From positions 32,001 through 96,000 of IMG/VR virus record IMGVR_UViG_3300020401_000014: a stretch of DNA of 64,000 nucleotides, one strand, 5' to 3'. The stretch's first letter is position 1. Every line of letters starts with the position of its first letter. This DNA comes from a virus. Of the stretch, positions 32,295-55,667 are shown piece by piece. The notes under the pieces were generated by a model. The model saw only the letters and a list, made by a program, of their open reading frames with translations. It was not told the origin of the DNA and did no database searches. Made by a program: the position numbers and the translations under genes.

Positions 32295-32511
32295 GCTAAT
32301 TTGTTATAATTTATATTTTTGTTTTGATATTGAAAAATACCACCCCCCGCCGGATTTCTTTGTCACATTTTAAAAATCAATTCACAAAATGGGTAGGGTT
32401 GCCATGCGGGGGTATATCAGTCCGGCTTATAGGCTCATTAGTTAAGCTACAAACGAACTAATAAGTCATTTTTTTCTCGCTTTTTTCGGTTTTTTCTGTT
32501 ACCTTATAGGT

Positions 32512-32712
32512 ATGAAAATGATTGATACTAGAAAAGAAATCCTCGAATCTCGGATCGAGGGAATCCACCACGCCATCGCAAAGATGCGTGAAGACGCAAC
32601 CTCTGCAACCCGTGCCAATGTTGAAATGGCAATCGAAATGCTTGCACTTCCCGAGCTTGAAAAGATCGAGTCTCAGCTTGCTGAAGTGCTTGCCGAAGTT
32701 GAAAACTCTTAA
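32512..32712 (+). CDS. small helical early protein
   Basis: ATG 6 nt after extended -10 TG-T-TACCTT. Confidence 0.75.
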   Translation: MKMIDTRKEILESRIEGIHHAIAKMREDATSATRANVEMAIEMLALPELEKIESQLAEVLAEVENS

Positions 32713-32760
32713 CTCATTTTTTTTGCTTGACCTTTAGCCTTTAATCCTTAGAATATAATC

Positions 32761-32868
32761 ATGAAAGTAAAAGTTAGAATCCCAATGGTCTTCTCCAAAG
32801 CCCGCCCTCACAAACTCAAAAACAAGGTTTTGCCACGCAAGGCAAAGCACAAAAAAACTTTCGCCTAA
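32761..32868 (+). CDS. 35-aa basic peptide, ArfA-like
   Basis: MKVKVRIPMVFSKARPHKLKNKVLPRKAKHKKTFA; own TTGACC-16-TAGAAT promoter; below the ORF-track cutoff. Confidence 0.7.
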   Translation: MKVKVRIPMVFSKARPHKLKNKVLPRKAKHKKTFA

Positions 32869-33382: not shown

Positions 33383-33607
33383 ATGGAAGGCTATAATGGC
33401 TGGGCTAATTGGCAGACTTGGAATGTCGCCCTATGGCTAGGCAACGACGAAAGTTTATACAAACTTGCTAGGCGTTTTGTACACTACAAAGATCTAGCCA
33501 ACTATCTAATAGAATCGGGCACTACTAGCACACCCGACGGTGCGGACTACCAAGACCCTGAGCTTGACACCCACGCACTTGACGAGTTGCTAATGGACGA
33601 ATTCTAA
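33383..33607 (+). CDS. conserved phage protein (YNGW.NW.TW motif)
   Basis: MEGYNGWANWQTWNVALWLGNDE motif common in phage early regions. Confidence 0.8.
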   Translation: MEGYNGWANWQTWNVALWLGNDESLYKLARRFVHYKDLANYLIESGTTSTPDGADYQDPELDTHALDELLMDEF

Positions 33608-33681
33608 ATCCTTGACAGTCAAGAATTTAGGGCTCCGCCGGCCCCGGGTTTTGCCGGAAATGCTTGTGCTTCAAGCGTTTA
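33605..33681 (+). repeat. palindrome doublet 1 (25-bp sites, 52-bp period)
   Basis: TAAATCCTTGACAGTCAAGAATTTA at 33605 and GAAATGCTTGTGCTTCAAGCGTTTA at 33657. Confidence 0.85.
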
Positions 33682-33705
33682 GGCAGGTTATCAGCGCGAC
33701 TTATA

Positions 33706-33722
33706 AGCTCATTAGTTGAGCT
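33706..33722. promoter_or_regulatory. AGCTCA-N5-TGAGCT palindrome (also 34714-34730; variant 32432-32448)
   Basis: Three copies, each centred 72-73 nt upstream of an ATG. Confidence 0.6.
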
Positions 33723-33786
33723 ACAAACGTACCTAATGGGTCATTTTCTTGTCGCTTTTTTGGGTTTTATATGCTACTGTATAAGT

Positions 33787-33978
33787 ATGATTAAAATAAT
33801 AGAAGTACTAATGAAAAGAGATCAACTTTCCGAAGAGGAAGCAACCGACCAAGTCGCCGCATTTCAATCTGAGATGTGGCTCGATGTCGCACAGGGTGGC
33901 GATGTCTGTGAATGGGAACACGCTTTCACTTCCGAGTTTGGGCTTGAGCCGGATTTCTTCGAGCTTTTAATCCTGTGA
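33787..33978 (+). CDS. conserved phage protein
   Basis: MIKIIEVLMKRD.LS.EEA...FGLEPDF; ATG follows the -10 box. Confidence 0.75.
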   Translation: MIKIIEVLMKRDQLSEEEATDQVAAFQSEMWLDVAQGGDVCEWEHAFTSEFGLEPDFFELLIL

Positions 33979-34044
33979 TAATAAAATGCCGAATGTGAAT
34001 AACTTTTGCTCGACTTTTACCAAAAAATTTAATAGAATACGAAT

Positions 34045-34287
34045 ATGTTAGAAAAATTAGAAAAACTCCAAAAAGATCTTGCTTGGTGGCAAGACAAACT
34101 CAACCGATCACGCAAGGAATCGACTCGCTCGATTCGTGCCGTTCATGTGCAACACTTGCAAGATGAGATTGCAAAGCTCACGCAACAAATCCGAGAGCGT
34201 GACTTGGAAATGCTCGATCTCAAAATCGCTCGTATAGATGCCCAAATCAAAAATCGCTCTTGGCAAAGAAGAGAGCAAAACGCTTAA
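34045..34287 (+). CDS. small coiled-coil protein
   Basis: TCGACT-17-TAGAAT-6-ATG. Confidence 0.75.
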   Translation: MLEKLEKLQKDLAWWQDKLNRSRKESTRSIRAVHVQHLQDEIAKLTQQIRERDLEMLDLKIARIDAQIKNRSWQRREQNA

Positions 34288-34291
34288 GCTT

Positions 34292-34633
34292 ATGAGAAAA
34301 GTAACACAACAAATAAAAGAAGCATTCGAACAACGCAAAGCCAAGACTGTTGGCAATACTCACACCGACGGAGAAAGCGTGTGGCTACATGGTAACAAGA
34401 TAGTGACCCGCGACCCTAGTGGCGTTGTAATGGCTACGCTTGCAGGTTGGAACACTCCAACCACAAGAGAAAGAGTCAACGGAATAACAGGATTAGGCTT
34501 TCACCAAGTAAACTTCGAAGCTTGCCTGAACGGTCAGATAGTTGACCCATTCGCTTGGTTTGTCAAGACGCACGAACCCAAGACTACCAAGCAAGTCTTG
34601 CCTCCACTTCCTAAGTCGTTGAGCGTCAAGTAA
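34292..34633 (+). CDS. conserved phage protein
   Basis: LHGNKI...GWNTPTTRERVNG motif; ATG 34292 preferred. Confidence 0.75.
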   Translation: MRKVTQQIKEAFEQRKAKTVGNTHTDGESVWLHGNKIVTRDPSGVVMATLAGWNTPTTRERVNGITGLGFHQVNFEACLNGQIVDPFAWFVKTHEPKTTKQVLPPLPKSLSVK

Positions 34634-34688
34634 TTAGGGCTCTGCCGGTCCCGGGTTTTGCCGGAAATGCTTGTGCTTCAAGTGTTTA
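34612..34688 (+). repeat. palindrome doublet 2
   Basis: TAAGTCGTTGAGCGTCAAGTAATTA at 34612 and GAAATGCTTGTGCTTCAAGTGTTTA at 34664. Confidence 0.85.
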
Positions 34689-34793
34689 CGCAAAGCTATC
34701 AGTAAGACTTATAAGCTCATTAGTTGAGCTACAAACGCAAATAATAGCGTTTTTTTTCTCGCTTTTTCGGGTTTTATCTGATACATTGTATGT

Positions 34794-34994
34794 ATGATTA
34801 AAAATGATAAAGTAATACAAGTAAGAATCAAGAGATGGTCAACGCATTGGGCTGTCAAAATCTTCGACCAAGGAGTCGATGCAGAAGGCAACGAACGCCC
34901 ACGCGTTCGAACCGCTTCAAGTCAATCTCATCTCAATAGAATCATGCGAGATGAAGGTCTCAATCAGTTTCGTTTTAATGTTGTTTTTCAATAA
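34794..34994 (+). CDS. hypothetical protein
   Basis: ORF follows a repeated promoter module. Confidence 0.7.
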   Translation: MIKNDKVIQVRIKRWSTHWAVKIFDQGVDAEGNERPRVRTASSQSHLNRIMRDEGLNQFRFNVVFQ

Positions 34995-35034
34995 TAAAGC
35001 TTGACTTTCACTCTTTAATCCTTAGAATATAATT

Positions 35035-35235
35035 ATGTTTGAATCACAAGACATTGATTACATCGCACAGAAAGCTTATGAAGCGGGCTTCGAAGGTAGC
35101 GATTCCGAAGAGCTTCCAAAGCGTTTGAGCGATCAACTCGAAACAGGCTTCGAGTATGTTTGGCTCGACAATTACCGCAAGGGGCAAGACGATGCTTTCC
35201 GCATCGTTTTGGCTGAATCTCCAACTTGGGAGTAA
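35035..35235 (+). CDS. small acidic protein
   Basis: TTGACT-16-TAGAAT-6-ATG. Confidence 0.75.
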   Translation: MFESQDIDYIAQKAYEAGFEGSDSEELPKRLSDQLETGFEYVWLDNYRKGQDDAFRIVLAESPTWE

Positions 35236-35238
35236 GAT

Positions 35239-35520
35239 ATGGCTTGGATGGACGAAATTGACTTTTCTCGTGAACCCAACAGTAGGGAATGGGTAGGAAT
35301 GTGTAGACGCAACCAAGCTCGTTGGGATGCACACAATACGGGCGAAAAGGTATACATTCTTGACATAGAGAACCGCTTACTTGATCACAAGTTTCAGGTT
35401 CATCAACGTGCAAAAAACGCTTGGCAAGCTGCACTAAGATACTACAAAGGACTTGACCACCAAGTGCCTGCTTGGACTTGGAAGTGTACCAAAGTTGTAA
35501 AAGCTACCCTAAAGCCTTAA
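35239..35520 (+). CDS. hypothetical protein
   Basis: Starts 3 nt after the previous ORF; stop codon lies inside a palindrome. Confidence 0.7.
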   Translation: MAWMDEIDFSREPNSREWVGMCRRNQARWDAHNTGEKVYILDIENRLLDHKFQVHQRAKNAWQAALRYYKGLDHQVPAWTWKCTKVVKATLKP

Positions 35521-35586
35521 TAATCAATGTTTTAGGGCAAATCGCCGCTGTCGTCGCCGCGCAAATGCTTGATAAACAAATACTTA
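35510..35586 (+). repeat. palindrome doublet 3
   Basis: TAAAGCCTTAATAATCAATGTTTTA at 35510 and CAAATGCTTGATAAACAAATACTTA at 35562. Confidence 0.85.
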
Positions 35587-35646
35587 CAAGATAAAAAAAA
35601 TGAAAAAAAAGCTTGCAATTGCTTGCAATACATGCTACCTTTAGGT

Positions 35647-35835
35647 ATGACTAAATCAGAAATCGAAAGCCACATCTCTCACCTTCACGCTCACCTTCAG
35701 ACCGCTGATCTCAGCGAGCCTGATCGGGTTTCGCTCCGCAACGAGATCGGGCATTGGCAGGACAAGCTCGCCCTTCTCGAATTCCAAAGCGAGGGCGAGG
35801 ACTTCGACTTTGGTCACCACTCCGAATGGGAGTGA
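35647..35835 (+). CDS. 62-aa protein, paralog A (C-terminus FQSEGEDFDFGHHSEWE)
   Basis: Paralog of 36149-36337; ATG 35647. Confidence 0.8.
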   Translation: MTKSEIESHISHLHAHLQTADLSEPDRVSLRNEIGHWQDKLALLEFQSEGEDFDFGHHSEWE

Positions 35836-35837
35836 CC

Positions 35838-35914
35838 TAAGTCGTTAATAGTAAATGTTTTAGGGCAAATCGCCACTGTCGCTGCCGCGTAAATGCTTGA
35901 TAAACAAAGACTTG
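35838..35914 (+). repeat. palindrome doublet 4
   Basis: TAAGTCGTTAATAGTAAATGTTTTA at 35838 and TAAATGCTTGATAAACAAAGACTTG at 35890. Confidence 0.85.
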
Positions 35915-36148
35915 CAGGATAAAAAAAATGAAAAAAAATGAAAAAAAAGCTTGACTTTTCGGCTTTTCTGTGGTAGAGTATACTCATAATAAGATAAAAA
36001 ATATAACCAACACCAAAAATGACAAATCTAACTGAGCGAGAAAAAATCCTTATCATCACAAAAATAATTCAAAAAAAAGCTTGACTTTTGCCAATTCATC
36101 TGATAAATTCTAAATATAAAATAAAGAAAACCCAACACAAAAAAAATT

Positions 36149-36337
36149 ATGACTAAAACCGAAATGCTCAACAAAATCTCTCTCCTCCGCGAAGTCCTTG
36201 CGGACTCCGTTTTGTCCTCCGCTGATCTCGTTGCGATCCGCAACGAAATCGGTGACCTTCAGGACAAGGTCGCTCTCCTCGACTTCCAAAGCGAAGGCGA
36301 GGACTTCGACTTCGGTCATCACTCCGAATGGGAGTGA
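36149..36337 (+). CDS. 62-aa protein, paralog B
   Basis: Last 17 residues identical to 35647-35835. Confidence 0.8.
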   Translation: MTKTEMLNKISLLREVLADSVLSSADLVAIRNEIGDLQDKVALLDFQSEGEDFDFGHHSEWE

Positions 36338-36383
36338 AAAAAAACCTTGACTTTCACTCTTAAATCACTAGAATAGTAATCAT

Positions 36384-36644
36384 ATGTTAAATACTTCAAA
36401 TAGAAATATCCCAACTCGCAGAGTCGAGTTTCTCAATGTCACTCTTCGCATCGTGCAGTCTTCAGTCGAAGACCCAACCGAAACGAGAGTTTTCAATACC
36501 AAGGTTTCGGCTGATCTTGACCAAGACCTTGACCACTTTTGGGCTTTGTCCGAAGCTCGTCGCCTAGAAGGCAACGCATGGAACACCGAAGAGGTTTCCG
36601 TTGAGCATTCATTCATTGACTCAACCGATCAATTCGTTTACTAA
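36384..36644 (+). CDS. hypothetical protein
   Basis: Own TTGACT...TAGAAT promoter. Confidence 0.7.
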   Translation: MLNTSNRNIPTRRVEFLNVTLRIVQSSVEDPTETRVFNTKVSADLDQDLDHFWALSEARRLEGNAWNTEEVSVEHSFIDSTDQFVY

Positions 36645-36832
36645 TGAGAATAATTGACATCGAACGAAACGAAAACCTGTCCGAGTGGCTCAATGTCCGA
36701 ATCTTTGGCAAGGTTGTAGAAACTGAAAAGTCGCTTGCTTTGGCAATGCAAAAAGCAAAAGAATTGCAAGCACGAGAAAAAGAAAACACTCGCACCCCTT
36801 TCATTATAATAGTAAAAGACAATGCAAAATAA
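36644..36832 (+). CDS. hypothetical protein
   Basis: TAATG coupling to the previous ORF. Confidence 0.7.
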   Translation: MRIIDIERNENLSEWLNVRIFGKVVETEKSLALAMQKAKELQAREKENTRTPFIIIVKDNAK

Positions 36833-37010
36833 AATAATCAAAGAAAAAATATCGAACCTCACCTCCACGCTTCAAGCTCTCACATTGCAAAAAATGAACG
36901 CTTTGAGAGTTGGCAACCGCAAGGAAGCTGAAGCAATTCAATCCGTACAAGTTGACATTGATAATAAGATTGTGCAACTTGAGAGAGCAATAAGACTCAT
37001 TAGATCATGA
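36822..37010 (+). CDS. small coiled-coil protein
   Basis: Overlapping operon ORF. Confidence 0.65.
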   Translation: MQNKIIKEKISNLTSTLQALTLQKMNALRVGNRKEAEAIQSVQVDIDNKIVQLERAIRLIRS

Positions 37011-37084
37011 CTTGGGACATTGTACTATTCTTGCCTTGGGTTGTAGTATTCTACTGCATGCACAAGAGCATTATAAGCTCTTGA
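37007..37084 (+). CDS. 25-aa hydrophobic peptide
   Basis: ATGA overlap; MTWDIVLFLPWVVVFYCMHKSIISS; stop codon inside a palindrome. Confidence 0.45.
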   Translation: MTWDIVLFLPWVVVFYCMHKSIISS

Positions 37085-37150
37085 TAATCAAGCTTTTAGG
37101 GCACGGCCGGCCTCCGGTTTTGACGTAAAACCTTGATAAACAACATCTTA
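37074..37150 (+). repeat. palindrome doublet 5
   Basis: TAAGCTCTTGATAATCAAGCTTTTA at 37074 and TAAAACCTTGATAAACAACATCTTA at 37126. Confidence 0.85.
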
Positions 37151-37224
37151 GGGTGATAGAATTGTGCAAAAAAGTAGTTGAAAGTTTTTCTTGACTTTTA
37201 GGCTTTGATATGTTACCTTAAGGT

Positions 37225-37407
37225 ATGATTAAATTAAATGATGTAGTTCGTGTCAAATATGGCACTCACAAGGGTAAAACCTTTCAAGTCGTGGGCTTCG
37301 CTCGCAAAGATAGCCTTGGCAAGTTAATCACTTGCAGGTTATACCGCTCTCAATATCGGTTTAACTTCATGCCTTGGCAAATTGAGATTCATCCTTTTTT
37401 TGCTTGA
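37225..37407 (+). CDS. KOW/SH3-like small protein
   Basis: LNDVVRVKYGTHKGKTFQVV KOW-like motif. Confidence 0.6.
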   Translation: MIKLNDVVRVKYGTHKGKTFQVVGFARKDSLGKLITCRLYRSQYRFNFMPWQIEIHPFFA

Positions 37408-37437
37408 CTTTCACTCTCCAAACCTTAGAATATAGTT

Positions 37438-37677
37438 ATGTTAGATCAAAATAGAAAATCTCAATTCCCTGAGCTAGATCTCTCGCTCGAAATGTCAAAG
37501 CTAGAAGGCAAGCTTCGTTTTCTTGCTACTTGCTCCGAAAAAGTCAGCGAATGGACTCCGAGCTTTACACAAGCCGAAACGATTCTCGAATCGCTTGGAC
37601 ATATCCAAGCCATAAGAAAAGACTTTGAAGAGTTGCAAGAGTTGCAACGCAAAAAATTGCTTGACTCCATCTCTTAA
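37438..37677 (+). CDS. hypothetical helical protein
   Basis: TTGACT..TAGAAT-6-ATG. Confidence 0.7.
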   Translation: MLDQNRKSQFPELDLSLEMSKLEGKLRFLATCSEKVSEWTPSFTQAETILESLGHIQAIRKDFEELQELQRKKLLDSIS

Positions 37678-37694
37678 CCTGTCATAATAGAATC

Positions 37695-37829
37695 ATGAAC
37701 GAAAGACAAAAAGAACTCACCCAAATCATTAACGAACACACTGAGCTTGCCGAACAAGGTTGCATTGAGTCGATGCAAATTGTGATCAATGCCCAAATAG
37801 AGCTTGACCAAATCACCGCAAACCAATAA
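37695..37829 (+). CDS. 44-aa helical protein
   Basis: MNERQKELTQIINEH...; own promoter; below the ORF-track cutoff. Confidence 0.6.
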   Translation: MNERQKELTQIINEHTELAEQGCIESMQIVINAQIELDQITANQ

Positions 37830-37912
37830 TGGAATTAGTCATTCTTGTAATCGTTTCGGGTTTGATCGGTGGCATTAAAGAATTGATCTATCCAACTCTA
37901 GAACGCAAGTAA
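37829..37912 (+). CDS. 27-aa membrane peptide
   Basis: TAATG coupling; MELVILVIVSGLIGGIKELIYPTLERK; stop codon inside a palindrome. Confidence 0.5.
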   Translation: MELVILVIVSGLIGGIKELIYPTLERK

Positions 37913-38025
37913 CTGATAGTCAAGCTTTTACGGCAAAGCCGGCCCCAAAAAATTACGTAAATACTTGATAAACAAAGTTTTACATAAAATAACATGGCCG
38001 CAAATCCCTGAATATCAGGGACTTA
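37906..38025 (+). repeat. palindrome doublet 6 plus a third site at the convergence point
   Basis: Sites at 37906, 37958 (+52) and 38001 (CAAATCCCTGAATATCAGGGACTTA). Confidence 0.85.
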
Positions 38026-38045
38026 CGCATGATTAAAAAATATGT

Positions 38046-38103
38046 TATTTGGCTATTTGGCTATTCTATTTGGCTATTTGGCTGTTCTATTTGGCTATTT
38101 GCC
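38046..38103. repeat. 21-bp tandem repeat (TATTTGGCTATTTGGCTRTTC) x2.8
   Basis: Read directly from the sequence; six TATTTGSC octamers. Confidence 0.85.
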
Positions 38104-38119
38104 TCTTCTAAATATATAA

Positions 38120-38329
38120 TTATACATAGTCGGCATGGGCGTATAACTTTCCTTCTGTATAGTTAGCTTTTCTTGTTATGTCAACAAAGTTTCTCGCCTT
38201 GACATTTGCTTCTACGCAAGCTTTGCCCAATACTTTCTCATCACTCTCTAATACTCTTCTTGCACAGACTTCTGCGATGATAGGAACTTTGTCGTTGGAT
38301 AATGTTAAGATAAATTTTGTTTTGTTCAT
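38120..38329 (-). CDS. hypothetical protein
   Basis: TTGACT-16-TATAAT-6-ATG. Confidence 0.7.
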   Translation of the reverse strand: MNKTKFILTLSNDKVPIIAEVCARRVLESDEKVLGKACVEANVKARNFVDITRKANYTEGKLYAHADYV

Positions 38330-38352
38330 GGCTTAATTATATCAGATTGAGA

Positions 38353-39087
38353 TTAAGAGTCAATACCTTCTTGCACAAAACCTGTCGCATCCTTCTTTGC
38401 CATACCTTTTTCGATAAGCCCGACAACAACGCCACGCTTGTCAAGGAAACGCAAATCCGTGTCATCACCATTGACAACTTCGTAGCCTTTCCAAGTTTTG
38501 GGCAACTGATTGCGAAATACCACGGCAACATTACCGCCCATCGCAAGAACCATTTCACACTTGGCATCATTGTTTTCGCTACGAGAGAAGGTCAAGTGAT
38601 AATTGGAAGGAAACTTTTCGCCTTTGATAAAAGGCTTGCCAAGAAAGTTGCTCATTCTTTTGAACGACTTTGTATAATCATAGAATTGAGTTTTGCCAAA
38701 CTTCTCAAAGATAGTAACACCATCCTCATTAATCTCATTCTCCCAACTGATGTCGCTCGTAAGGTTTAAACGAAATACCGCTTGCATTTCCTTTTTGAGA
38801 GAGCTTTTGATGGTCGAAGTAATCTCTTTGGACAACTTAGTAAAGAAGTCCATTTTTTGCTCAAAGAATAGCTTTGTCTTGGCAATGCGTGATTGCTGAA
38901 CGCTATTCATTTGCCCACGACCAGCCGTGTTGAGACATGACATTGTGCAACCTTTAGAACGCCAACGGCAAACTTCATAGCCTGCAAGATTGGCGGGGGC
39001 AAGATGAATGCCTTTCGTGATGTAACCCATTTTCTCGCCCTTGAGAATTTTTTGGTTACCTGATGTGAGAAGAGTTGTTTTAATCAT
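38353..39087 (-). CDS. GP88-like Cys-motif phage protein
   Basis: LAPA..AGYEVC.W.S.GC..SCL..AGRG, RLNLTSD, FYDYTK, GDDTDLRFLD. Confidence 0.65.
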   Translation of the reverse strand: MIKTTLLTSGNQKILKGEKMGYITKGIHLAPANLAGYEVCRWRSKGCTMSCLNTAGRGQMNSVQQSRIAKTKLFFEQKMDFFTKLSKEITSTIKSSLKKEMQAVFRLNLTSDISWENEINEDGVTIFEKFGKTQFYDYTKSFKRMSNFLGKPFIKGEKFPSNYHLTFSRSENNDAKCEMVLAMGGNVAVVFRNQLPKTWKGYEVVNGDDTDLRFLDKRGVVVGLIEKGMAKKDATGFVQEGIDS

Positions 39088-39110
39088 GATACTATACTAA
39101 TGGAAATAAA

Positions 39111-39527
39111 TTAATCTGTCAAGCCCCGAATAGCCTCAACCAAAACTTTGTCTTGATAAAGTTTGCAAATACTAGCAAACCATCTTGGCTTCTTGTTTTT
39201 GACATCAACAAAAGACTCGTACTTGTAAGGATTGTATGTTATCTCAACGAAGTCAACCCATCCATGCCATACGGTGTCTTCATAAAATCTAAGGTAACCT
39301 GAAATACCGGCATGAACATTCTTGCTCTTTTCACGAAGCACACGCTCACGACCTTTTTGGTTTACTTTCATTGTTGCTGAATATATAGCAATTGGAGATC
39401 CATCCGAATGAGCTTTAACTAGTCCATCCTGGCGAATGCTCCAACAATCTTTGTGAAGGTTTTTATATACAAACACCTTGCGATCATAGTCGATGTTATA
39501 GCGAGAGTCGTTTTTTGTTCTAATCAT
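39111..39527 (-). CDS. conserved phage protein
   Basis: VYKNLHKDCWSIR...GRERVLREK.KNVHA motif. Confidence 0.8.
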   Translation of the reverse strand: MIRTKNDSRYNIDYDRKVFVYKNLHKDCWSIRQDGLVKAHSDGSPIAIYSATMKVNQKGRERVLREKSKNVHAGISGYLRFYEDTVWHGWVDFVEITYNPYKYESFVDVKNKKPRWFASICKLYQDKVLVEAIRGLTD

Positions 39528-39579
39528 ACATATATAATAACATATAGAGCCCGTATGTCAAGCCTTTTTTATCTTTTCG

Positions 39580-39656
39580 CAAGTGTATGATTGTCAAGGT
39601 TTTGCGTAAAAACTTTGGGCCGGCAGTTACCTAAAATGTTGCAAACCAACAACTTA
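39580..39656 (-). repeat. palindrome doublet 7 (inverted orientation)
   Basis: Sites at 39580 and 39632; GCCGGCCC spacer reads on the minus strand. Confidence 0.8.
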
Positions 39657-39678
39657 TAACTTAAGAAATTTAACTAAT

Positions 39679-39708
39679 AAAAAAACCCTTGGTTTCCCAA
39701 GGGTTTTT
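39679..39708 (-). terminator. intrinsic terminator
   Basis: AAAAAAACCCTTGG-TTTC-CCAAGGGTTTTT hairpin flanked by A/T tracts. Confidence 0.8.
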
Positions 39709-39732
39709 GAGGTTAGGCTAAGCCTATCCGAG

Positions 39733-39960
39733 TTAAGCGCCCGCACGCTTGAAAAAGCGTGAGGCAACTTTTGCACGGATAACCTTTGCACGATTAACAC
39801 GACGCTCGCCTCCATTGGTATCCTTAAAGCGGATAACCTTGGAGTTGTAGTCATGAACTTTAGCTGAGTAAAGCTCACGCTTGAGACCATTCTTGAGGAG
39901 AACGGATACAAACCGACCTTTGCGTGCGTCTAGGACTTCGTTGATGTTACGACATTTCAT
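39733..39960 (-). CDS. small beta-rich protein
   Basis: Strong codon bias; directly upstream of the terminator. Confidence 0.7.
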   Translation of the reverse strand: MKCRNINEVLDARKGRFVSVLLKNGLKRELYSAKVHDYNSKVIRFKDTNGGERRVNRAKVIRAKVASRFFKRAGA

Positions 39961-39991
39961 GATATGTAGTTCCTTTGGTTGATGGTTAAAG

Positions 39992-40789
39992 TTAAGCTAC
40001 AAGCTCGACCTGCTCGACTCCTGCGATAGGATCGAAAGCATTGTGAAAGATTTCAGAGCGTTTGGGCAAGTGCATGACATTGCGTCCTTTGCTCACTTCC
40101 GTGAAAGCATTGTACAATGAATTGAGATTGCGGTCTTGGAAAACCTTGTGATCGGAATCTTTCCATTGCTCCCATGCTTGAGCAAGAGTAGACTGACCAA
40201 TAAGATTAGTCTTGATACCCGCCTCGTAGACATCGAAAATAAGATGTTGAGCTTCACGATCGTTGAGTGCAACCTCCTTGTAAGAGTCAACTCTCTTGTT
40301 TTGATGCGTCCACATTGGAATAAGATGCTCGGTGATCTTTTCTACACGCTGAAGAAGTTCTTTGCGGACTTCGCCAACATGCTTGCGAGTGAATACAACA
40401 TCGTTGTGGAATACGAGGTTGTCACAAATGAATGGTGCATCACCCGCACACAATCCCGCTGCGAAAAGTTTGTCATGCGAATTACGCATTCCAACTACGC
40501 AACCACGCTCCTTGCCGTTGTCGGCAATCTCTGCGTGATGAACTTGAAACATTCCAAAGTAGTGTTCACCCGCTTTGGTCAAGTTGTGGCATTCGTTTAC
40601 GATCTCGAAACCTTTTTCTTCAAGAGTGTTGCGAGTAACATCGACAACGCTTGCATGAGGCACAGGCTTCCAACGATTAGTTTCCTTTGGAGTAGGAACT
40701 CTGCGGACAGAATCCATGTCCACGACATTTGATTTTGAGCCACAAATCCGAAGATTGAGGCGTGGAATTTCATAGGTTGTTTCTAACAT
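39992..40789 (-). CDS. DUF932-family protein
   Basis: WKPVPH, RNSHDK...G...F.CDN...RKH motifs. Confidence 0.8.
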   Translation of the reverse strand: MLETTYEIPRLNLRICGSKSNVVDMDSVRRVPTPKETNRWKPVPHASVVDVTRNTLEEKGFEIVNECHNLTKAGEHYFGMFQVHHAEIADNGKERGCVVGMRNSHDKLFAAGLCAGDAPFICDNLVFHNDVVFTRKHVGEVRKELLQRVEKITEHLIPMWTHQNKRVDSYKEVALNDREAQHLIFDVYEAGIKTNLIGQSTLAQAWEQWKDSDHKVFQDRNLNSLYNAFTEVSKGRNVMHLPKRSEIFHNAFDPIAGVEQVELVA

Positions 40790-40859
40790 AATTTTTTAAG
40801 TTTAGGATTTTTGATTGTTATGATATAAGTATAAGTTAATATATAGCAAAAGTCAAGCA

Positions 40860-41129
40860 TTAATTTTGCGAATTCTTGTTTTGTGTGATGCCATACTGAA
40901 GGTCTTCCCAAGCTTGGGCTTTCTTGGCAATAATGTTAAGAGCAAACTTGATATGCATAAGAGTCTCTTGTTGTTCTTCGTCAAGCTCTCCGCTTGCAAG
41001 TGCGGGAACAATAAACCAATCACCCAATACATCGGTGACTGCATCCATTGCCTTTGTTGCACTGATATCTGATGCTGAAAAGATATCTTCGTTTTCGTCG
41101 TTGTTAGTGAAGTCTTTCTCAATCCTCAT
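40860..41129 (-). CDS. hypothetical acidic protein
   Basis: ATG 41129 follows a -10-like box. Confidence 0.6.
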   Translation of the reverse strand: MRIEKDFTNNDENEDIFSASDISATKAMDAVTDVLGDWFIVPALASGELDEEQQETLMHIKFALNIIAKKAQAWEDLQYGITQNKNSQN

Positions 41130-41201
41130 ACATATAATTATGACAGGTTCTGAGCTAATTGCAAGCATAAAATGACTAGTAAATGCATTTTTTTCAGTAC
41201 T

Positions 41202-41278
41202 TAAGTGCTTGATAACCAAGGTTTTGCGCCAAAACCGGAAGGCCCAAATCCCCCAAAAGCTTGGGGGATAAGGACTTA
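41202..41278 (-). repeat. palindrome doublet 8
   Basis: TAAGTGCTTGATAACCAAGGTTTTG at 41202 and CAAAAGCTTGGGGGATAAGGACTTA at 41254. Confidence 0.8.
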
Positions 41279-41289
41279 GGGAAGGGTTT

Positions 41290-41448
41290 TTAGAAAACCC
41301 TTTTTTCTAATTTGTAGAGCTTTTCTAACATGGAATCATGCAATTTTCTTTTCTCTACAAAATCTTCGCAATAAGCACCCGAAGACTCAGCAAGCATTAG
41401 CTCAAAGCCAAGCTCCCGAATGCTTTTTTTCAACGCTTCGATGTTCAT
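41290..41448 (-). CDS. 52-aa helical protein
   Basis: MNIEALKKSIRELGFEL...; manual translation. Confidence 0.55.
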   Translation of the reverse strand: MNIEALKKSIRELGFELMLAESSGAYCEDFVEKRKLHDSMLEKLYKLEKRVF

Positions 41449-41449
41449 G

Positions 41450-41680
41450 TTATACCTTTGCGAGAGCTTTCACACGATCATACCTAAAAGAGCGAATGCC
41501 CTTTCTGTTGTGGCAGAACGCACGAAACCCGACAACATTACGACCTTCGTGATTGTTCCCAAACTCGTAGTCATGCTGAGGTTTGTTGATGGTATAACTT
41601 TCCGTTCTTCCATCTTCAGTAGTATATACCACTTGATACTTAGGAGAGAACAGGTTCTTGATTTTGCTTAGTAGCTTCAT
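41450..41680 (-). CDS. stand-alone WYL-like domain protein
   Basis: VVY..EDG..E...I.KP...FRAFCHNRKGIRSFRYDRV. Confidence 0.6.
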   Translation of the reverse strand: MKLLSKIKNLFSPKYQVVYTTEDGRTESYTINKPQHDYEFGNNHEGRNVVGFRAFCHNRKGIRSFRYDRVKALAKV

Positions 41681-41912
41681 AAGCGATCCTTTCGTTTTGG
41701 ATTTGTTCTAGTTGATTGAGAACTGCTTGACATTGATCATGCGTCTCGTAATGTAAAGTAATTAGATCGGGGTATTCGTTTTCACCCCTTCTGTACCAAT
41801 CGGGCAAACGCTCCTCGAAGTACATTTCCCAAAGCCCTGACTCTTCATTAAAAGTGGGTTTGTCGAGAGGTGGTAACTCGCAGTTTTCTTGAATGTATTC
41901 TAAATTTAACAT
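41640..41912 (-). CDS. hypothetical protein
   Basis: ORF with an upstream TTGACT promoter. Confidence 0.65.
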   Translation of the reverse strand: MLNLEYIQENCELPPLDKPTFNEESGLWEMYFEERLPDWYRRGENEYPDLITLHYETHDQCQAVLNQLEQIQNERIAYEATKQNQEPVLS

Positions 41913-41935
41913 GATATAATTCTCTCAAAAATAGA

Positions 41936-42121
41936 CTAAGAAGTCAAGCCTTTTTTTGCTTCTTGAGCTTTTTTTACCTTTTGCGTGACCATCACATTTG
42001 GATTGTTGATGTGTGGGACAAGTGGCTTTGCTCCTGTGTGAGACTGTTGCTTTGCCTTTTTATATAAATCCAAGTGTTGTTCTTGACTTGGCACTCCTCT
42101 TTCTCTGTTTCTTTTACCCAT
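41936..42121 (-). CDS. small basic protein
   Basis: Coupled ORF. Confidence 0.45.
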   Translation of the reverse strand: MGKRNRERGVPSQEQHLDLYKKAKQQSHTGAKPLVPHINNPNVMVTQKVKKAQEAKKGLTS

Positions 42122-42317
42122 TTTTGGCTTCCTCTATGATTTGTTCTAGTTGTGCAAGCACGGACTTTTTGTTGCCTTTAAGTCCAAACTCGCTTTTGAC
42201 GATTGAATATGCTGATTGACCTCTTCGCTTCATTCCAAGACACTCTAGCTTGAGTGCGGATCTGAGGCTAAGAATTCTATATAGTTCTATATGTTCGGAT
42301 GTGTCTAATGCTATCAT
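42114..42317 (-). CDS. conserved phage protein
   Basis: LRSALKLECLGMKRRGQSAYSIVK motif. Confidence 0.7.
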   Translation of the reverse strand: MIALDTSEHIELYRILSLRSALKLECLGMKRRGQSAYSIVKSEFGLKGNKKSVLAQLEQIIEEAKNG

Positions 42318-42323
42318 AATGTT

Positions 42324-42548
42324 TTAGATGTTTGCTGATTGAAAAGATGCTTCTATTCTACGCTCATCTCGCAAACTTGTCAAGTCTGAAATGATGTCAT
42401 CTAAGACTTCATCGAATGACTGAAAAGTACTGCCGAGCGGAAACTTGTCGGGGTGGCGTTCGTGTTGGTCAAGGCAAACCTTGGACATTGGATCTGCCCA
42501 AGCAAGATTTCCCTTAACGATTTGGATTACTAATTCTGCTTCTGTCAT
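42324..42548 (-). CDS. hypothetical protein
   Basis: TTGACA-17-TAGTAT-6-ATG. Confidence 0.75.
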   Translation of the reverse strand: MTEAELVIQIVKGNLAWADPMSKVCLDQHERHPDKFPLGSTFQSFDEVLDDIISDLTSLRDERRIEASFQSANI

Positions 42549-42782
42549 GGTATAATACTAAGCTAGTTTGAAATATATGTCAACCACTAAATCCAAGAAA
42601 ATGAACGATTGCGATATATATAAAGATGATTAATGCTGCTAGTGCGAATGTTTGTTGGTATGTCATGGTAAATTGGTAGGATTTTTTTGACAAATCAGGA
42701 ATCCCATAAACCTGTTAATTAGCTAGTTTGGATTTTCTACTTACTAATTTCAGCTACTCATCCGCTATACTAAAGTGTGAAC

Positions 42783-42858
42783 CTCTTTCTCTCTCCCGAA
42801 GGTTGTAGGCGTGTGCTGACGCCTCGTTGTTCAATGCTTTCGCATCTACAGAAAGAGC
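42783..42858 (-). ncRNA. structured multibranch RNA directly 3' of the tRNA-like element
   Basis: 8-bp CTCTTTCT/AGAAAGAG stem enclosing ATGC-GAAA-GCAT, AGGCGT-CAGCAC-ACGCCT and CC-TTCG-GG hairpins. Confidence 0.45.
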
Positions 42859-42991
42859 AGTCCCCTGCAGGATTCGAACCTGCGTTTCCTACATCCTCAT
42901 CGGATTACTCCTTACCAATGATCAGTTGGCTACAGACTAACTAGTATCCTGTTGTGGAGTGGCGTCCTAGGCCGTACTAGACGAAGGGGAC
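42859..42991 (-). tRNA. tRNA-like RNA (Glu-type scaffold) with a ~60-nt expanded anticodon arm
   Basis: Perfect 7-bp acceptor GTCCCCT/AGGGGAC, D arm GTCTAGTACGGCCTAGGAC, T arm GCAGG-TTCGAAT-CCTGC; 133 nt; no encoded CCA. Confidence 0.8.
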
Positions 42992-43073
42992 ACAAATTGA
43001 AATTGATTATCAAAAGAACTATATATCATTATGACAGAAAAACGCTCCGTGTCAACACTTTTTTTTCGTTACC

Positions 43074-43209
43074 TAAATCGTTGGCGCAGAAGAAAATAGG
43101 AAAAATATATAAAACCTTTAAAAAAACTTTCGTAAGTCGTTGGCGCAGAAGAAAATACAACAAATCTCAGTGGGCGATTTTCCATAAGTTGTTGATAATC
43201 AACTACCTT
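43074..43209. repeat. palindrome doublet 9 plus a degenerate third site
   Basis: Sites at 43074, 43133 and 43185 (43133 to 43185 = 52). Confidence 0.7.
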
Positions 43210-44754: not shown

Positions 44755-44846
44755 AAGACCAAAGGCTTTTATTGAGTTACCTTTGAAGCGATGATAGTAA
44801 CTAGAGGCAACACACAACCTCCGCATATTTGCTCAGAAAAAATAGA

Positions 44847-45031
44847 TGTGGGGGAGGACTACTGAATACCTCCAACTTTTCGGCGTGAACATCAGTTCAG
44901 GATTACCTACTTCGAACCACAGATTAGACTTGGCATTCGTCATCGACTCATCCGATTGGACTCTATCGCCCCGCCACAGGGAATCTGCGTACTTTAGCCC
45001 GCTCACGACAGGTTTAGTTCAGTCACCCACA
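44847..45031 (-). ncRNA. 6S (SsrS)-like RNA
   Basis: 185-nt GC-rich rod: TGTGGG/CCCACA, ACTGAA/TTCAGT, CGTGAGC/GTTCACG, 11/27-nt central bubble, CGCAGATT/AATCTGTG; alternative TGAAC/GTTCA hairpin as in 6S. Confidence 0.6.
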
Positions 45032-45125
45032 GGAAGGATTATAAGCCCTTCCAAAGTGTTTAAAATGTTAAAGATCAATTTATTTTATTTATTTGAGTTT
45101 GGTTCTCAATTTTGATTATGTAATA

Positions 45126-48317: not shown

Positions 48318-48565
48318 GATGCAGAAATCAAAGCTTGATGAATAATATTTCTAGTCTTGTAATCAAGAATCCTACCTTCATCATCTTGGGGCAACTCACT
48401 TAAAACCTCTTCTAAATTTAAATTATGAAGTTGGCATAAGCAAGCGACTTTTCTATAAATACCAATTTCTTTATATTTAAGAATTGCCCAAGAAGCATCT
48501 ATTGTTGCAGAATCAGAAGAGCAAATTGCATCAGTTAATTTATTTGTCTCGATAGTTGTATCCAT
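48314..48565 (-). CDS. hypothetical protein
   Basis: TGATG coupling to rIIB. Confidence 0.6.
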   Translation of the reverse strand: MDTTIETNKLTDAICSSDSATIDASWAILKYKEIGIYRKVACLCQLHNLNLEEVLSELPQDDEGRILDYKTRNIIHQALISAS

Positions 48566-49656
48566 CACAATTCTAAAACTCTCCAATTTGACATGATCTT
48601 GTCTTCATCTTCTTCTATATCAAAACCCATATCTCCAAGAAGAATCGCAATGTCACGCACTCTCCAACCTTCTTCACGACTAACTTTCAAGTCAGCAATG
48701 TGTTTAAGAGTAACTTCTTCGCCATTCTCCATTTTGTTTTCGATATAATTGCGAACCGCAAGTCTTGAAACCGCATCTTCTGAATCATCAAAAGGTTCGT
48801 CATCCCAATCTCCTTCGATTTCAGAATCGTCATGCTCGTAATCGCTATCGCTTCCGTAGATAGGCTTATTAGCCTCGTAGACTACCTTATCTAGCTCTTG
48901 ACGAGAATCGGTAATGTCTGCGACTACCCTGTATTTAGAAACCCTTAGTTTCTGAAATTCACAATCGGTAGGAACGCTGACTGCATCTTGAGGATCGAAC
49001 TCCACAAGAAGCAAGCGACCTTCACTTCCCGCCCAATTATTTGCGTAATCATACGATCCAATATGCAAACCATGTGAACAATGATTATCCTTATTGTCAT
49101 CGCAACTTCTACGCTGAATCTCGATAGTTTCACCGACTCCATTGTAGATTTGGTGACGACTATTGGTTTGACCTTGCACAACAATAGTATCGGCATTGCC
49201 TGTGTTGCTCCAAAAGTCATTTTGGACTCCTTTGTAACCCAATACCTTGCCTTCGGGAGTGATCGGAAGTGACCGATAACCAAGGAAAGTATAAAGTTCA
49301 TCAACAGAATTAGAAGATGGATTGTTCATCAATCGTCCAATGTAGTTAGTAATCGGAGTAGAATCTTTCATTCCACTACGCAACATATCCAAGAGTTTGT
49401 CAACAACTACTCCATGTAGTCGATGCTTGCCCTTGTAATATAGCACTTCATCTCTAACTTCTACATCACCCTCTACGAAGTCCGTAATAGCTTTCTTTAC
49501 ATCAAGCAATTCGGGAACATCTTCGTAACGACCTTCAAAGATTGCAGATCGCAAAGCGGAGAAGTTGGCATTGTCCTTTCGGATGGTGTAAGGTTTTCCA
49601 TCATAAAAGATAGTGATGGAATCCTCGCTCAAGTTATACGCTAATTTTTCGCTCAT
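48565..49656 (-). CDS. rIIB: rIIB-like protein
   Basis: NPS..SVDELYTFL, ITPEG..LGYKGV, D.N.DNHCS.GLHIG, DPQDAVSVP.D...KLRV.KY; directly downstream of rIIA. Confidence 0.8.
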   Translation of the reverse strand: MSEKLAYNLSEDSITIFYDGKPYTIRKDNANFSALRSAIFEGRYEDVPELLDVKKAITDFVEGDVEVRDEVLYYKGKHRLHGVVVDKLLDMLRSGMKDSTPITNYIGRLMNNPSSNSVDELYTFLGYRSLPITPEGKVLGYKGVQNDFWSNTGNADTIVVQGQTNSRHQIYNGVGETIEIQRRSCDDNKDNHCSHGLHIGSYDYANNWAGSEGRLLLVEFDPQDAVSVPTDCEFQKLRVSKYRVVADITDSRQELDKVVYEANKPIYGSDSDYEHDDSEIEGDWDDEPFDDSEDAVSRLAVRNYIENKMENGEEVTLKHIADLKVSREEGWRVRDIAILLGDMGFDIEEDEDKIMSNWRVLEL

Positions 49657-49735: not shown

Positions 49736-52021
49736 TCATGCCTCTTCCCCTTGCTTATCACACATAGAAATATAATCAATGATATTCTTGCCGAAGTTGT
49801 CTTCGTTGTAATTGATCCATCCGTAAACTTTTGAACATATATTCGCAAGTAATGGGTACTTGTCGTCAATGTCTTTGCAGAGGTAATCGAAACTCTTCCA
49901 TTTATATTTAGAAGAGAAATTCTTGTCGAACCACTCCTTGTCTTCTTCTTGCACCAACTTTTTAAGTTTAAACAATGTGCTGATAACAAGGTCATCGTTT
50001 TGAGAATCCGCTAGAATTTGCATAGCTTGTAGAATATCGTTGTCTTTGTCAAAAGTCTTATGCAGTATGCTTCTGAAGCTTGTATTGCCCAAAATATTCT
50101 CTAGCTTCTTTACATTGTTCATTTCATGCCTATGCTCTTGATATGCCATTCTACGCTCTCCACGCAAGAGATCGGCTTTTCTGCGAAGCAATGCACCCTT
50201 GGCTACTTTGATGCGATGATCTTGCCATTCAATCCATTTAGATTTGTCAAGCTTTTTTACATCTGACTTACGGATGCCATAGACTTCAACCTTGCGGTCA
50301 TCATCAAGGTTCTTGAACAAGGCTTGTAAACCTTTGTAGTCACGCTTCAATGAATCTAATTCATATCCAATTCTACCGCATGGTTTATAATTACTAATAG
50401 CAATATATACAAGATAGGAGTCATCGTCTAAATCTTTCTCAAGGTCTTCGACTTCTGATCCATTTCTCCATTGATCTGAATTTCTGTATCCACAAGGATC
50501 ATATAGAAAAGTTGGTACAGATGCACGACTTTCGCCACTTGCTCTTGTGCCTTGCTTGAGTTTTGCTTTCTCAACATTGCTAGTATAATACAAGTTGTCC
50601 TTAGATACAAGATTGAGTTGCCAACCATCTTCATCACCGAACATATATTGGCTACCAACATCAGTATAAGATACCACATATACACCCACAATAGAGTCAT
50701 CACTATTGAACATAGTTCTTGCTCGTAGAGCATTACCATGCGAAGATGCAATGTCTTGCAAGATGAGTCGGTTGTTCTTGTGAACATCCACTCTGCTTAC
50801 TTTTTGACTTCTTACTTTATATCCATCGGTAACATCTTTGTCTTCGACTTTAGTATATTCAGTAATAGTAATATCTTCATTGTACTGATAGTTTCTATGA
50901 AAGGTTGCACCCAAAATTGGAATACCTTTCCATTTAAAACTATTTTGAAAAATGCTTCGTAGTTCGTATGGCAAAGCATTAATAACTTGTGCATACTTTG
51001 CTTTCGCATCCCATAGGCAAGTTGCTCCACCAAGTTTTTCCTTGGCAATCTCTTGAATGTCATCGTACATTTTCCTAAGATGTTGAACAATAGCTTTTTG
51101 CGTAGCTTTGTTATATTCCAAAGACTCACGACTATGATGCAATTTTAGTTCGCCAATGTCGAATCTAAGATATACATTATCTTCATCACATATATTCTTT
51201 AGAGGAGCATAATCGTAACCTTCTTCTACATAATTTTTGAAATCAATAGAATTGGTATTGATAGGATAATGCACTCTGCCCATGAAAGCATGAGATTGAG
51301 AATGGCTTCTTCTCCAATAGTCTTGCTTGTCATCAATGATAAACCAAGACTTGTCCTTGGCTTCAAGCACAACATCGTACTTGTCAAAAAATTGTTCGTC
51401 ATCACCAATGCCAATGAATTTGGGCATTTCTTCTTCGCTGAAGAAGCGGAAGAATGCTTTGACAATTTCTCTGAACTTGTCTACATCTTCATCTGCAATG
51501 GCAACTTCTACCGACAAACCACTTGGTTCGTTGCTAGGTTCTTTGTGCATCTCTACAATCTTGGTATCGTCATCTTCATTGACAAATATATTGTAAGAAG
51601 ATTTAGTTCCACCATGATACGAAACGCAAGTAAAATTGTTTCCATAAGACAATGGAGCAAATTTACCGATACCGAAAGCACCAATATATGAATTGGAATT
51701 ACGCTTGGTACTTTTGCCGTACTTTGAGTATAAACCGAATACATCTTCTTTGCTCAAACCACTACCAAAGTCACGAACGCAAAAGTTTGGATTAAACTTA
51801 GATGGCAAAGTAATCTCGACTTTGCGAGTAGCATTTGCTTCTTTGTTTGCATCCAATGCGTTTGCACTAATCTCACGCACAACTGCGAGAGGTGGATTGG
51901 AATAGTTGTTGCGAAGAAGAGAAGCGACATAACGCATATCTTCGGCATCAATGGTACAATTTACGGAATCGAAATCGTGAGACGATACGACTCGTTTGGA
52001 TTTTTCTTGTGTGATAATCAT
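49736..52021 (-). CDS. rIIA: rIIA-like protein with N-terminal GHKL ATPase
   Basis: VREISANALDA, VRDFGSGL, STKR.SN..IGAFGIGKFAPLSY. Confidence 0.85.
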   Translation of the reverse strand: MIITQEKSKRVVSSHDFDSVNCTIDAEDMRYVASLLRNNYSNPPLAVVREISANALDANKEANATRKVEITLPSKFNPNFCVRDFGSGLSKEDVFGLYSKYGKSTKRNSNSYIGAFGIGKFAPLSYGNNFTCVSYHGGTKSSYNIFVNEDDDTKIVEMHKEPSNEPSGLSVEVAIADEDVDKFREIVKAFFRFFSEEEMPKFIGIGDDEQFFDKYDVVLEAKDKSWFIIDDKQDYWRRSHSQSHAFMGRVHYPINTNSIDFKNYVEEGYDYAPLKNICDEDNVYLRFDIGELKLHHSRESLEYNKATQKAIVQHLRKMYDDIQEIAKEKLGGATCLWDAKAKYAQVINALPYELRSIFQNSFKWKGIPILGATFHRNYQYNEDITITEYTKVEDKDVTDGYKVRSQKVSRVDVHKNNRLILQDIASSHGNALRARTMFNSDDSIVGVYVVSYTDVGSQYMFGDEDGWQLNLVSKDNLYYTSNVEKAKLKQGTRASGESRASVPTFLYDPCGYRNSDQWRNGSEVEDLEKDLDDDSYLVYIAISNYKPCGRIGYELDSLKRDYKGLQALFKNLDDDRKVEVYGIRKSDVKKLDKSKWIEWQDHRIKVAKGALLRRKADLLRGERRMAYQEHRHEMNNVKKLENILGNTSFRSILHKTFDKDNDILQAMQILADSQNDDLVISTLFKLKKLVQEEDKEWFDKNFSSKYKWKSFDYLCKDIDDKYPLLANICSKVYGWINYNEDNFGKNIIDYISMCDKQGEEA

Positions 52022-54346: not shown

Positions 54347-54437
54347 GATGTAAATAAGTATTGAGGAAAAATGCTTGATTGTCAAGCTTTTTCTGAAAAT
54401 GCTTATAAGTTTCTCATTATAAGTCGTTTAAATATAA

Positions 54438-55625: not shown

Positions 55626-55667
55626 AAGTTTAATATGACAGAGTTTGATGCCCCTGTCAAGCATTTT

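Follow-up and report, generated by a model that had tools for sequence, protein, structure and literature searches.

Paired 25-bp palindromes at a fixed distance as candidate boundary elements between early gene modules of an uncultured marine phage

The window is the stretch of DNA analysed here, 64,000 nucleotides long: positions 32,001 to 96,000 of IMG/VR virus record IMGVR_UViG_3300020401_000014. Its source is an uncultured marine phage of about 200 kb, and window DNA is found in marine metagenomes of many studies. No near match to the window occurs among 50,697 deposited phage genomes, nor in cultured phages. The element described here is a 77-bp unit, the palindrome doublet, present nine times in an early region of small genes. 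Each doublet consists of two 25-bp palindromes that start exactly 52 bp apart and flank a GC-rich spacer of 27 bp. The doublets and the single palindromes of the same family are distributed as follows (ORF, open reading frame; PWM, position weight matrix).

33605..33681, + strand: doublet 1; palindromes at 33605-33629 and 33657-33681; its first three bases are the TAA stop of ORF 33383-33607
34612..34688, + strand: doublet 2; matches doublet 1 with 88% identity across 82 nt; its first palindrome contains the stop of ORF 34238-34633
35510..35586, + strand: doublet 3; the stop of ORF 35239-35520 lies within the first palindrome
35838..35914, + strand: doublet 4; matches doublet 3 with 88% identity across 103 nt; last base of the upstream stop at 35835; next come an A-rich tract and then a promoter (35951-35979)
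37074..37150, + strand: doublet 5; followed by a promoter (TTGACT at 37191) and the ATG of a leaderless gene (37225)
37906..37982, + strand: doublet 6; final unit of the + block
38001..38025, no strand assigned: single palindrome, 43 bp past the second palindrome of doublet 6 and just before ORF 38029-38166; PWM score 20.4, outside the training set
39580..39656, - strand: doublet 7; inverted polarity; a promoter at 39561-39534 (-) and a leaderless ATG at 39527 follow
41202..41278, - strand: doublet 8; inverted polarity
43074..43098, - strand: single palindrome, 24/25 identical to the palindrome at 43133, 59 bp off
43133..43209, - strand: doublet 9; weakest copy, inverted polarity; a promoter at 43055-43028 (-) follows
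54368..54392, no strand assigned: lone palindrome belonging to this family, in the gap that separates the ligase gene from the gene after it

All nine pairs had been picked out, with the same start-to-start distance, by an original prediction made from the letters of the window alone, and each lies where that prediction placed it. The copies in the window retain only an invariant skeleton, the half-site TAA-N4-TTG / CAA-N4-TTA. With up to two mismatches allowed, the pattern TAARNNNTTGANNNTCAANNNYTTA matches 16 times in the 64 kb, against 0.53 expected from shuffled sequences (largest shuffle count 4), and 15 of the 16 matches fall within 33.6-43.2 kb. An independent repeat finder also recovers the family (69 nt, 7 copies), and a weight-matrix scan of the 64 kb added the singles at 38001, 43074 and 54368 and nothing more. 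The single copy at 43074..43098 may be the scar of a cassette loss. Spacers contain 44-81% GC, compared with about 35-40% in their surroundings. They have diverged to a mean pairwise identity of 0.52 in the window, and the length is 27 bp in all nine. Read along the direction of transcription, the spacer runs 5'-GGG...CG-3'; this polarity reverses from the + block (33.6-38.0 kb) to the - block (39.6-43.2 kb). Composition, identity and length measurements thus agree with the predicted GC-rich, diverging 27-bp spacer, and the predicted flip of polarity at the point of convergent transcription is likewise confirmed.

The position of the units relative to genes follows a regular plan. Relative to the stop codon of the upstream ORF, the first palindrome has its outer edge within about -21 to +11 bp in most copies, and the next start codon is 50-140 bp downstream of the unit. 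The prediction had placed five upstream stops inside the first palindrome. Four are found there (33605, 34612, 35510 and, on the - strand, 39656), whereas the fifth, at 35838, ends 2 nt before it. Every doublet in the window is followed within 20-110 bp by a sigma70-type promoter. Past the second palindrome the order is A-rich tract, -35 element (TTGAC, at a distance that varies over 20-45 bp), extended -10 element and, about 6 nt on, the ATG. The downstream genes are leaderless, have sigma70-type promoters and often begin Met-Ile-Lys. Units are co-oriented with transcription and close modules of one to six genes, in keeping with the proposal that the elements separate gene modules and follow gene orientation. 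Some gene boundaries carry no doublet. Within modules, genes may adjoin through a promoter with no spacer (stop at 34994, promoter at 35001), and many promoters of the region have no doublet. A bidirectional terminator-like hairpin (39681-39708) lies just upstream of doublet 7.

Conservation of the arrangement was examined in 49 related IMG/VR loci, gathered with the Gp37/Gp68-like protein of the window (38353-39087, - strand) as query; several of them are parts of contigs of 184-211 kb rated complete by CheckV. Doublets were found in about 30 of the 49. Among relatives, 140 pairs are spaced at exactly 52 bp, versus 4 at 51 bp and 3 at 53 bp, and other lineages use 42 bp (17 pairs), 48-50 bp (29 pairs) or 55 bp (11 pairs), all of these being non-unique counts. 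Spacing is nearly constant inside any one genome, so that the check on its conservation shows a distance fixed per lineage. In most relatives the consensus reads, in order, TAAGTCGTTG-N5-CAACGACTTA, GGGCAAACCGCCCTGGGCGGTTTTGCG, TAACTCGTTG-N5-CAACGACTTA and CAACAAAAT. Across 160 distinct palindromes, A2, A3, T9, A17, T23 and T24 are at least 96% conserved and positions 4-7, 11-15 and 19-22 drift. Spacers are 52-56% identical, yet fixed in length. The sites are not scattered at random over the genome: in a complete 211-kb relative they cluster in one block, with 19 of 20 pattern matches inside 1.9-16.7 kb (reversed control, 0-1) and 16 of 20 PWM hits inside 1.9-12.7 kb (shuffles, about 1). In this complete relative the elements are restricted to about 5-7% of the genome.

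A host regulon was considered and rejected. When 185,579 species genomes were scanned for the full palindrome, single hits turned up here and there in many phyla, pointing to no host and no regulon; multi-copy hits occurred only on contigs that are mis-binned phage relatives. Doublet arrays of the 42- or 53-bp classes were seen on contigs L083, L113, L116, L151 and L166, which sit in metagenome-assembled genomes (MAGs) of Enterobacterales, Rhodobacteraceae, Bdellovibrionota and others and are probably phage contigs mis-binned.

Whether the palindromes are read as duplex DNA or as RNA hairpins can be judged from how they vary. The consensus palindrome is perfect, yet deviations in the two arms are independent, pairing at every variable position being equal to the shuffled expectation. 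No covariation was found within either palindrome or between the two, and the 5-nt centre is less complementary than chance (anti-complementary). A symmetric consensus without covariation therefore points to identical subunits on duplex half-sites, not to a selected stem. Together with strict spacing over diverged spacers, the same lack of covariation favours two protein dimers over hairpins. The palindromes are candidate dimer-binding sites, two dimers per unit, a reading supported indirectly by these sequence patterns. Predicted RNA folds of the nine window copies disagree and share no common structure.

As regards the GC-rich core between the palindromes, in two lineages without palindromes (L030, L020), a G-run/C-run palindrome occupies the same intergenic position and is followed by ATTGTGCAA and a promoter. 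Spacers of the 52-bp class fold better than shuffled sequences (mean z -1.4), and of their two strands the sense strand gives the more stable fold (p = 1e-4). In a fixed-register test, the first of two mini-hairpins, H1, pairs in 67% versus 60% in controls, with GGGC/GCCC, GGGA/TCCC and GGCC/GGCC variants that look compensatory; pairing of the second, H2, was not above controls. In the 42- and 50-bp classes the spacers are almost pure G+C and contain no T-tracts. By its position, and by homology of arrangement, the GC core is terminator-like.

A related motif occurs in the cultured Stenotrophomonas phage DLP6 (KU682439.2). The sequence CAACGACTTA is present there in 24 copies, versus 0-1 for the control, and was absent from T4, HTVC008M, RpAliso and CM1. 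The DLP6 copies lie within a conserved TGTAAAATCAACGACTTA and extend across 34.6-144.8 kb. Most form direct doublets with a period of 25-26 bp, usually exact, which cannot pair together. The motif directly abuts canonical hairpin-plus-T terminators, 4-45 bp past annotated stops and about 100 bp before the next gene. In the DLP6 genome paper these repeats appear only as parts of predicted terminators and are not discussed as a motif (PMC5349666). DLP6 and a complete relative share only about 10 ORFs, and their comparison brought up just housekeeping genes and a tRNA look-alike. With almost no proteins in common, the shared motif may reflect a host factor or coincidence rather than a shared phage protein.

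Rearrangements in the region involve the doublets in part. In an alignment of five relatives a 274-bp segment is present in two and absent in three. Besides one palindrome, it holds a promoter and a leaderless ORF of 66 codons; the junction falls within a palindrome, and the indel leaves a palindrome-spacer-palindrome-spacer-palindrome triplet. The order of the segments between doublets differs among relatives. Ends of alignments of at least 85% identity are enriched 2.1-fold in doublets (13.5% versus 6.4%, p = 7e-10, the ends not being independent events), and 86% of homology breakpoints fall outside doublets. The expected mapping of breakpoints to doublets is accordingly seen as a twofold enrichment and one precise indel, and does not extend to the great majority of breakpoints. 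On contigs from natural populations the joints lie mainly at conserved -35/ATG borders (37199/37200, 34790, 32516, 37402); only two, 35527 and 35835, are at doublets. The modules that doublets 1/2 and 3/4 were predicted to head are duplicated in their non-coding regulatory part (doublet, hairpin, promoter), but the genes that follow are unrelated.

These patterns bear on the idea, also raised by the original prediction, that the doublets are integron-like or other site-specific sites, at which a recombinase would excise and insert one- or two-gene cassettes at the paired dyads. The unit resembles an attC site in having two inverted-repeat pairs round a variable GC-rich centre, placed at the stop codon in the same orientation as the gene. 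What one indel takes out is exactly a single promoter-plus-ORF unit with one palindrome, and cassette order varies among relatives. A recombinase is missing. The absence of one from the window had been predicted and is borne out for a tyrosine recombinase, and the search extended to three complete relatives found no tyrosine recombinase (PF00589; 14/14 control genomes positive), serine recombinase (PF00239) or Y1 transposase/RAYT (PF01797; controls positive for both). There is no folded-strand covariation, the modules have their own promoters, most natural joints and 86% of breakpoints lie outside doublets, chiefly at promoter/start-codon borders, and the cores are oriented GTT...AAC, versus AAC...GTT in attC simple sites. 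Site-specific cassettes of this kind are very improbable. What stands of the proposed cassette shuffling is that the doublets serve as joints, as the 274-bp indel and the 2.1-fold enrichment indicate. The further suggestion that they are DNA-entry or replication signals found no support in the analysis.

Selfish miniature elements of the MITE, REPIN or BIME type, spreading in the phage genome, would also be short and numerous, with terminal inverted symmetry, and near-identical copies do occur within single genomes: in L019 (13820, 15023) and L040 (14253, 15550) the copies share the spacer and second palindrome. Such elements would hardly be confined to about 5-7% of the genome, keep the same syntenic positions across lineages and always be co-oriented with transcription. 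The flanks show no target-site duplication, three complete relatives have no RAYT or transposase, and the motif positions are under purifying selection while the remainder drifts. Spread as selfish DNA is extremely improbable.

Closest in layout are the promoter-early stem-loop (PeSL) cassettes of T4-type phages (Arbiol et al. 2010, PMC2839356; Comeau et al. 2014, PMC4122927). The repeats are used as recombination joints in PeSL-like homologous exchange of repeated regulatory DNA, not in site-specific recombination. One account has no dedicated binder: the units would be plain PeSL-type cassettes whose RNA hairpins act as weak tandem terminators or 3'-end stabilisers, their repetition being mere homology. 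The stop-to-promoter position is the same as that of PeSLs (PMC2839356, PMC4122927). The spacers have hairpin potential, and both the indel at a palindrome and the breakpoint enrichment fit. Several window copies read as a stem plus T-tract, as does copy 54368..54392, whose layout (A-tract, 6-bp stem, 3-nt loop, T-tract) resembles a small bidirectional intrinsic terminator. On this account compensatory change within or between palindromes would be expected, and there is none. Predicted folds vary from copy to copy, the exact length of a diverged spacer is unexpected for hairpins, the stems of relatives are not followed by T-tracts, and the half-sites of DLP6, being direct repeats, are unable to form a hairpin. 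An explanation by hairpins without a binder is unlikely.

If the dyads are bound by protein, the binder could come from the phage, as a protein so far unannotated, or from the host, as an IHF-type architectural protein. The invariant half-site CAA-N4-TTA matches the core of the IHF consensus WATCAANNNNTTR. The core CAA-N4-TTR is found in 208 of 320 half-sites (66%) and the full IHF 13-mer in 35 of 320, and the DLP6 version, AAAATCAACGACTTA, fits the IHF consensus fully, including the A-tract. Against IHF, relatives also conserve the N4 (as CGAC) and positions 5-7. Related contigs are binned in MAGs of several phyla.

A further possibility is that the dyads are upstream activator or architectural sites of the next promoter, for example IHF-assisted, and do nothing at the 3' end of the module before them. 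A promoter does follow every doublet within about 20-110 bp, 66% of half-sites match the IHF core, and the DLP6 motif has an upstream A-tract. Strong IHF sites carry such a tract. The units, however, keep a tight distance to the upstream stop and a variable one to the -35 element; at 32415-32515 the same promoter module stands without a doublet, as do many other promoters of the region. A purely promoter-directed function is distinctly unlikely.

The reading preferred here is that the units are protein-bound terminator or insulator boundary elements that also act as joints for gene shuffling, to which a probability of roughly 45% is given. Each 77-bp unit would form a composite boundary that closes an early module of one to six genes at its 3' end. 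The GC core of the unit would be the counterpart of the lone GC hairpin in palindrome-less lineages and of the DLP6 terminator hairpin. This core would be clamped by two dyads, whose half-site in most relatives is TAAGTCGTTG. A sequence-specific dimer would recognize each dyad in duplex form, which would place two dimers at a fixed, lineage-specific distance. The bound complex would most likely stop or insulate transcription arriving from the upstream module, and the strong sigma70-type promoter of the next leaderless gene would be shielded from read-through. A boundary element at this position is plausible because read-through in a leaderless array would be expected to occlude promoters without expressing the downstream genes. 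The units could also act as a common switch for the whole early region. Repeated units and conserved promoters would together supply homology for gain, loss and exchange of gene modules.

Several results weigh against this boundary reading. The original prediction proposed same-face cooperative binding of two dimers about five helical turns apart. Two dimers at a fixed distance are consistent with symmetry without covariation, invariant spacer length and the direct repeats of DLP6; the same-face, five-turn part is not upheld, since other lineages use 42, 48-50 or 55 bp. Neither 48-50 nor 55 bp amounts to a whole number of helical turns, and a simple same-face model fails across lineages. T-tracts are missing from many spacers, and of the two mini-hairpins only one is backed by the fixed-register test. 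An RNA-library contig (34769-35868) crosses doublet 3, so that this copy must be leaky if the contig is truly RNA; such a contig cannot reveal transcript ends, and stretches with no RNA cover are uninformative. As for a binder, no DNA-binding domain was found in 53 small early ORFs (Pfam, PHROGs) and no HU/IHF-family gene in three complete relatives. In a presence/absence scan of palindrome-rich versus palindrome-poor loci no family tracks the elements cleanly, the best being present in 17/23 versus 0/8 and confounded by relatedness. The dyad cores are presumably 2 bp too close for a symmetric IHF-type complex, judged from the geometry of the IHF-H' structure.

A bolder version of the boundary reading would have one protein clamp the dyads, switch the early region and catalyse or stimulate exchange of promoter-plus-gene cassettes at these sites. 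It is a long shot; if true, a lytic phage would possess a cassette system in which no known recombinase family takes part.

The sequences between the doublets and the genes are themselves repeated. Two promoter families were recognized, TTGACT-N16-TAGAAT-N6-ATG and a second with the extended -10 element TGnTACnnT-N6-ATG, and both end in a leaderless ATG. Because many genes begin Met-Ile-Lys, the conserved promoter module extends into the first codons. The modules form two groups.

32458-32515, 33733-33790, 34740-34797 and 37185-37224: promoter modules
32718-32779, 34992-35053 and 37395-37456: promoter modules, second group

A conserved 49-nt module with a hairpin (AGCTCA-TTAGT-TGAGCT) occurs at 33689-33737, 34697-34745 and 32415-32463. 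It sits between doublet and promoter, and one of its three places has no doublet. The sequence ATTGTGCAA-N5-TAGTTGAAAG lies upstream of TTGACT promoters (37151-37190 in the window; intergenic regions of L030 and L020) and is common to the window, the 52-bp lineages and the palindrome-less lineages.

Near the convergence point a small ORF, 38029-38166 (+), with start ATGATTAAAAAA, encodes a repetitive hydrophobic peptide with IWLFG repeats. An apparent iteron array at this place (TATTTGGCT, about 8 times, 38033-38104) was dismissed, being actually the body of this ORF. The ORF is conserved in position in relatives (L001, about 4470-4540; L017, about 8100-8240), and natural populations carry a TGG insertion polymorphism in it at 38065.

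Beyond the early block the window carries larger genes, among them the following.

49736-52021: rIIA
48565-49656: rIIB
54438-55664: ATP-dependent ligase
4578-22730, - strand: ORF of 6050 aa with weak CBM5/12 and RCC1-repeat matches only and no PHROG match

A Kyanoviridae Gp96-like protein is present alongside rIIA and rIIB. A full-length manA RNA motif (RF01745) lies at 44843-45052 (-), with 73.4 bits against a gathering score of 55.2, in a stretch with many natural variants. Neither ARAGORN nor Rfam calls anything in the segment 42859-42991, which is precisely missing from a contig of a related strain in nature, where 42866 is joined to 42998. Three further identities for the repeated elements were rejected. 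N4-type hairpin promoters with a virion RNA polymerase were considered, and the 6050-aa ORF has no polymerase match. A tRNA or known RNA in the 77-nt unit was dropped, ARAGORN being empty and Rfam returning nothing relevant. MotA-box and FNR/CRP-box readings misfit both the spacing and the consensus of relatives.

The regulation and reshuffling of tiny-gene blocks in large uncultured marine phages are largely obscure, and this clade offers a punctuation mark of exact geometry. Such geometry implies a specific trans-acting factor, for which the doublet would be a simple pull-down probe. The same 10-mer beside DLP6 terminators makes the question bench-testable. Should a host IHF-type protein be the binder, these phages would be building transcriptional boundaries from host architectural proteins.

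Among known systems, BIME/RIP and REPIN elements are paired palindromic units located after genes, some of which bind IHF or gyrase and affect termination or mRNA stability. The doublets are likewise paired palindromic units in intergenic DNA after genes. Those systems, however, comprise GC-rich hairpin REPs that are genome-wide and RAYT-linked, whereas the palindromes here are AT-rich, limited to one region and without a RAYT. The attC sites of integrons are comparable in their two short inverted-repeat pairs, their variable, imperfectly symmetric GC-rich centre and their co-oriented position right after an ORF. The phage units differ in lacking an integrase, folded-strand covariation and GTTRRRY/RYYYAAC cores in the attC orientation. 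Integron cassettes are mostly promoterless, whereas the modules here own sigma70-type promoters, and units within one genome do not vary in length. On its defining tests the comparison with integrons breaks down.

DLP6 shares with the window clade an identical 10-mer next to a GC-rich hairpin or core, after stop codons, before a promoter and usually paired at an exact period. Its repeats are direct, both lie upstream of a hairpin that has a T-tract, and they are spread over 34-145 kb, whereas the pairs of the window clade are inverted, flank the core and occupy one block. As in PeSL cassettes, a composite non-coding unit lies between the stop of a small early gene and the next strong sigma70-type promoter; many copies of it stand in a plastic stretch of small genes annotated without function, and they supply joints for insertion, deletion and replacement. 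Unlike in PeSLs, the terminator side consists of two 25-bp dyads at an exact lineage-specific distance round a GC core, with no covariation; the genes here are leaderless, and few proteins are shared with a T4-like genome (DLP6). The element is best classed with the PeSL-type terminator-promoter boundary cassettes, as a variant marked by paired operator-like dyads, and it would extend the idea of regulatory cassettes as shuffling joints beyond the classical T4-type phages to leaderless single-gene units.

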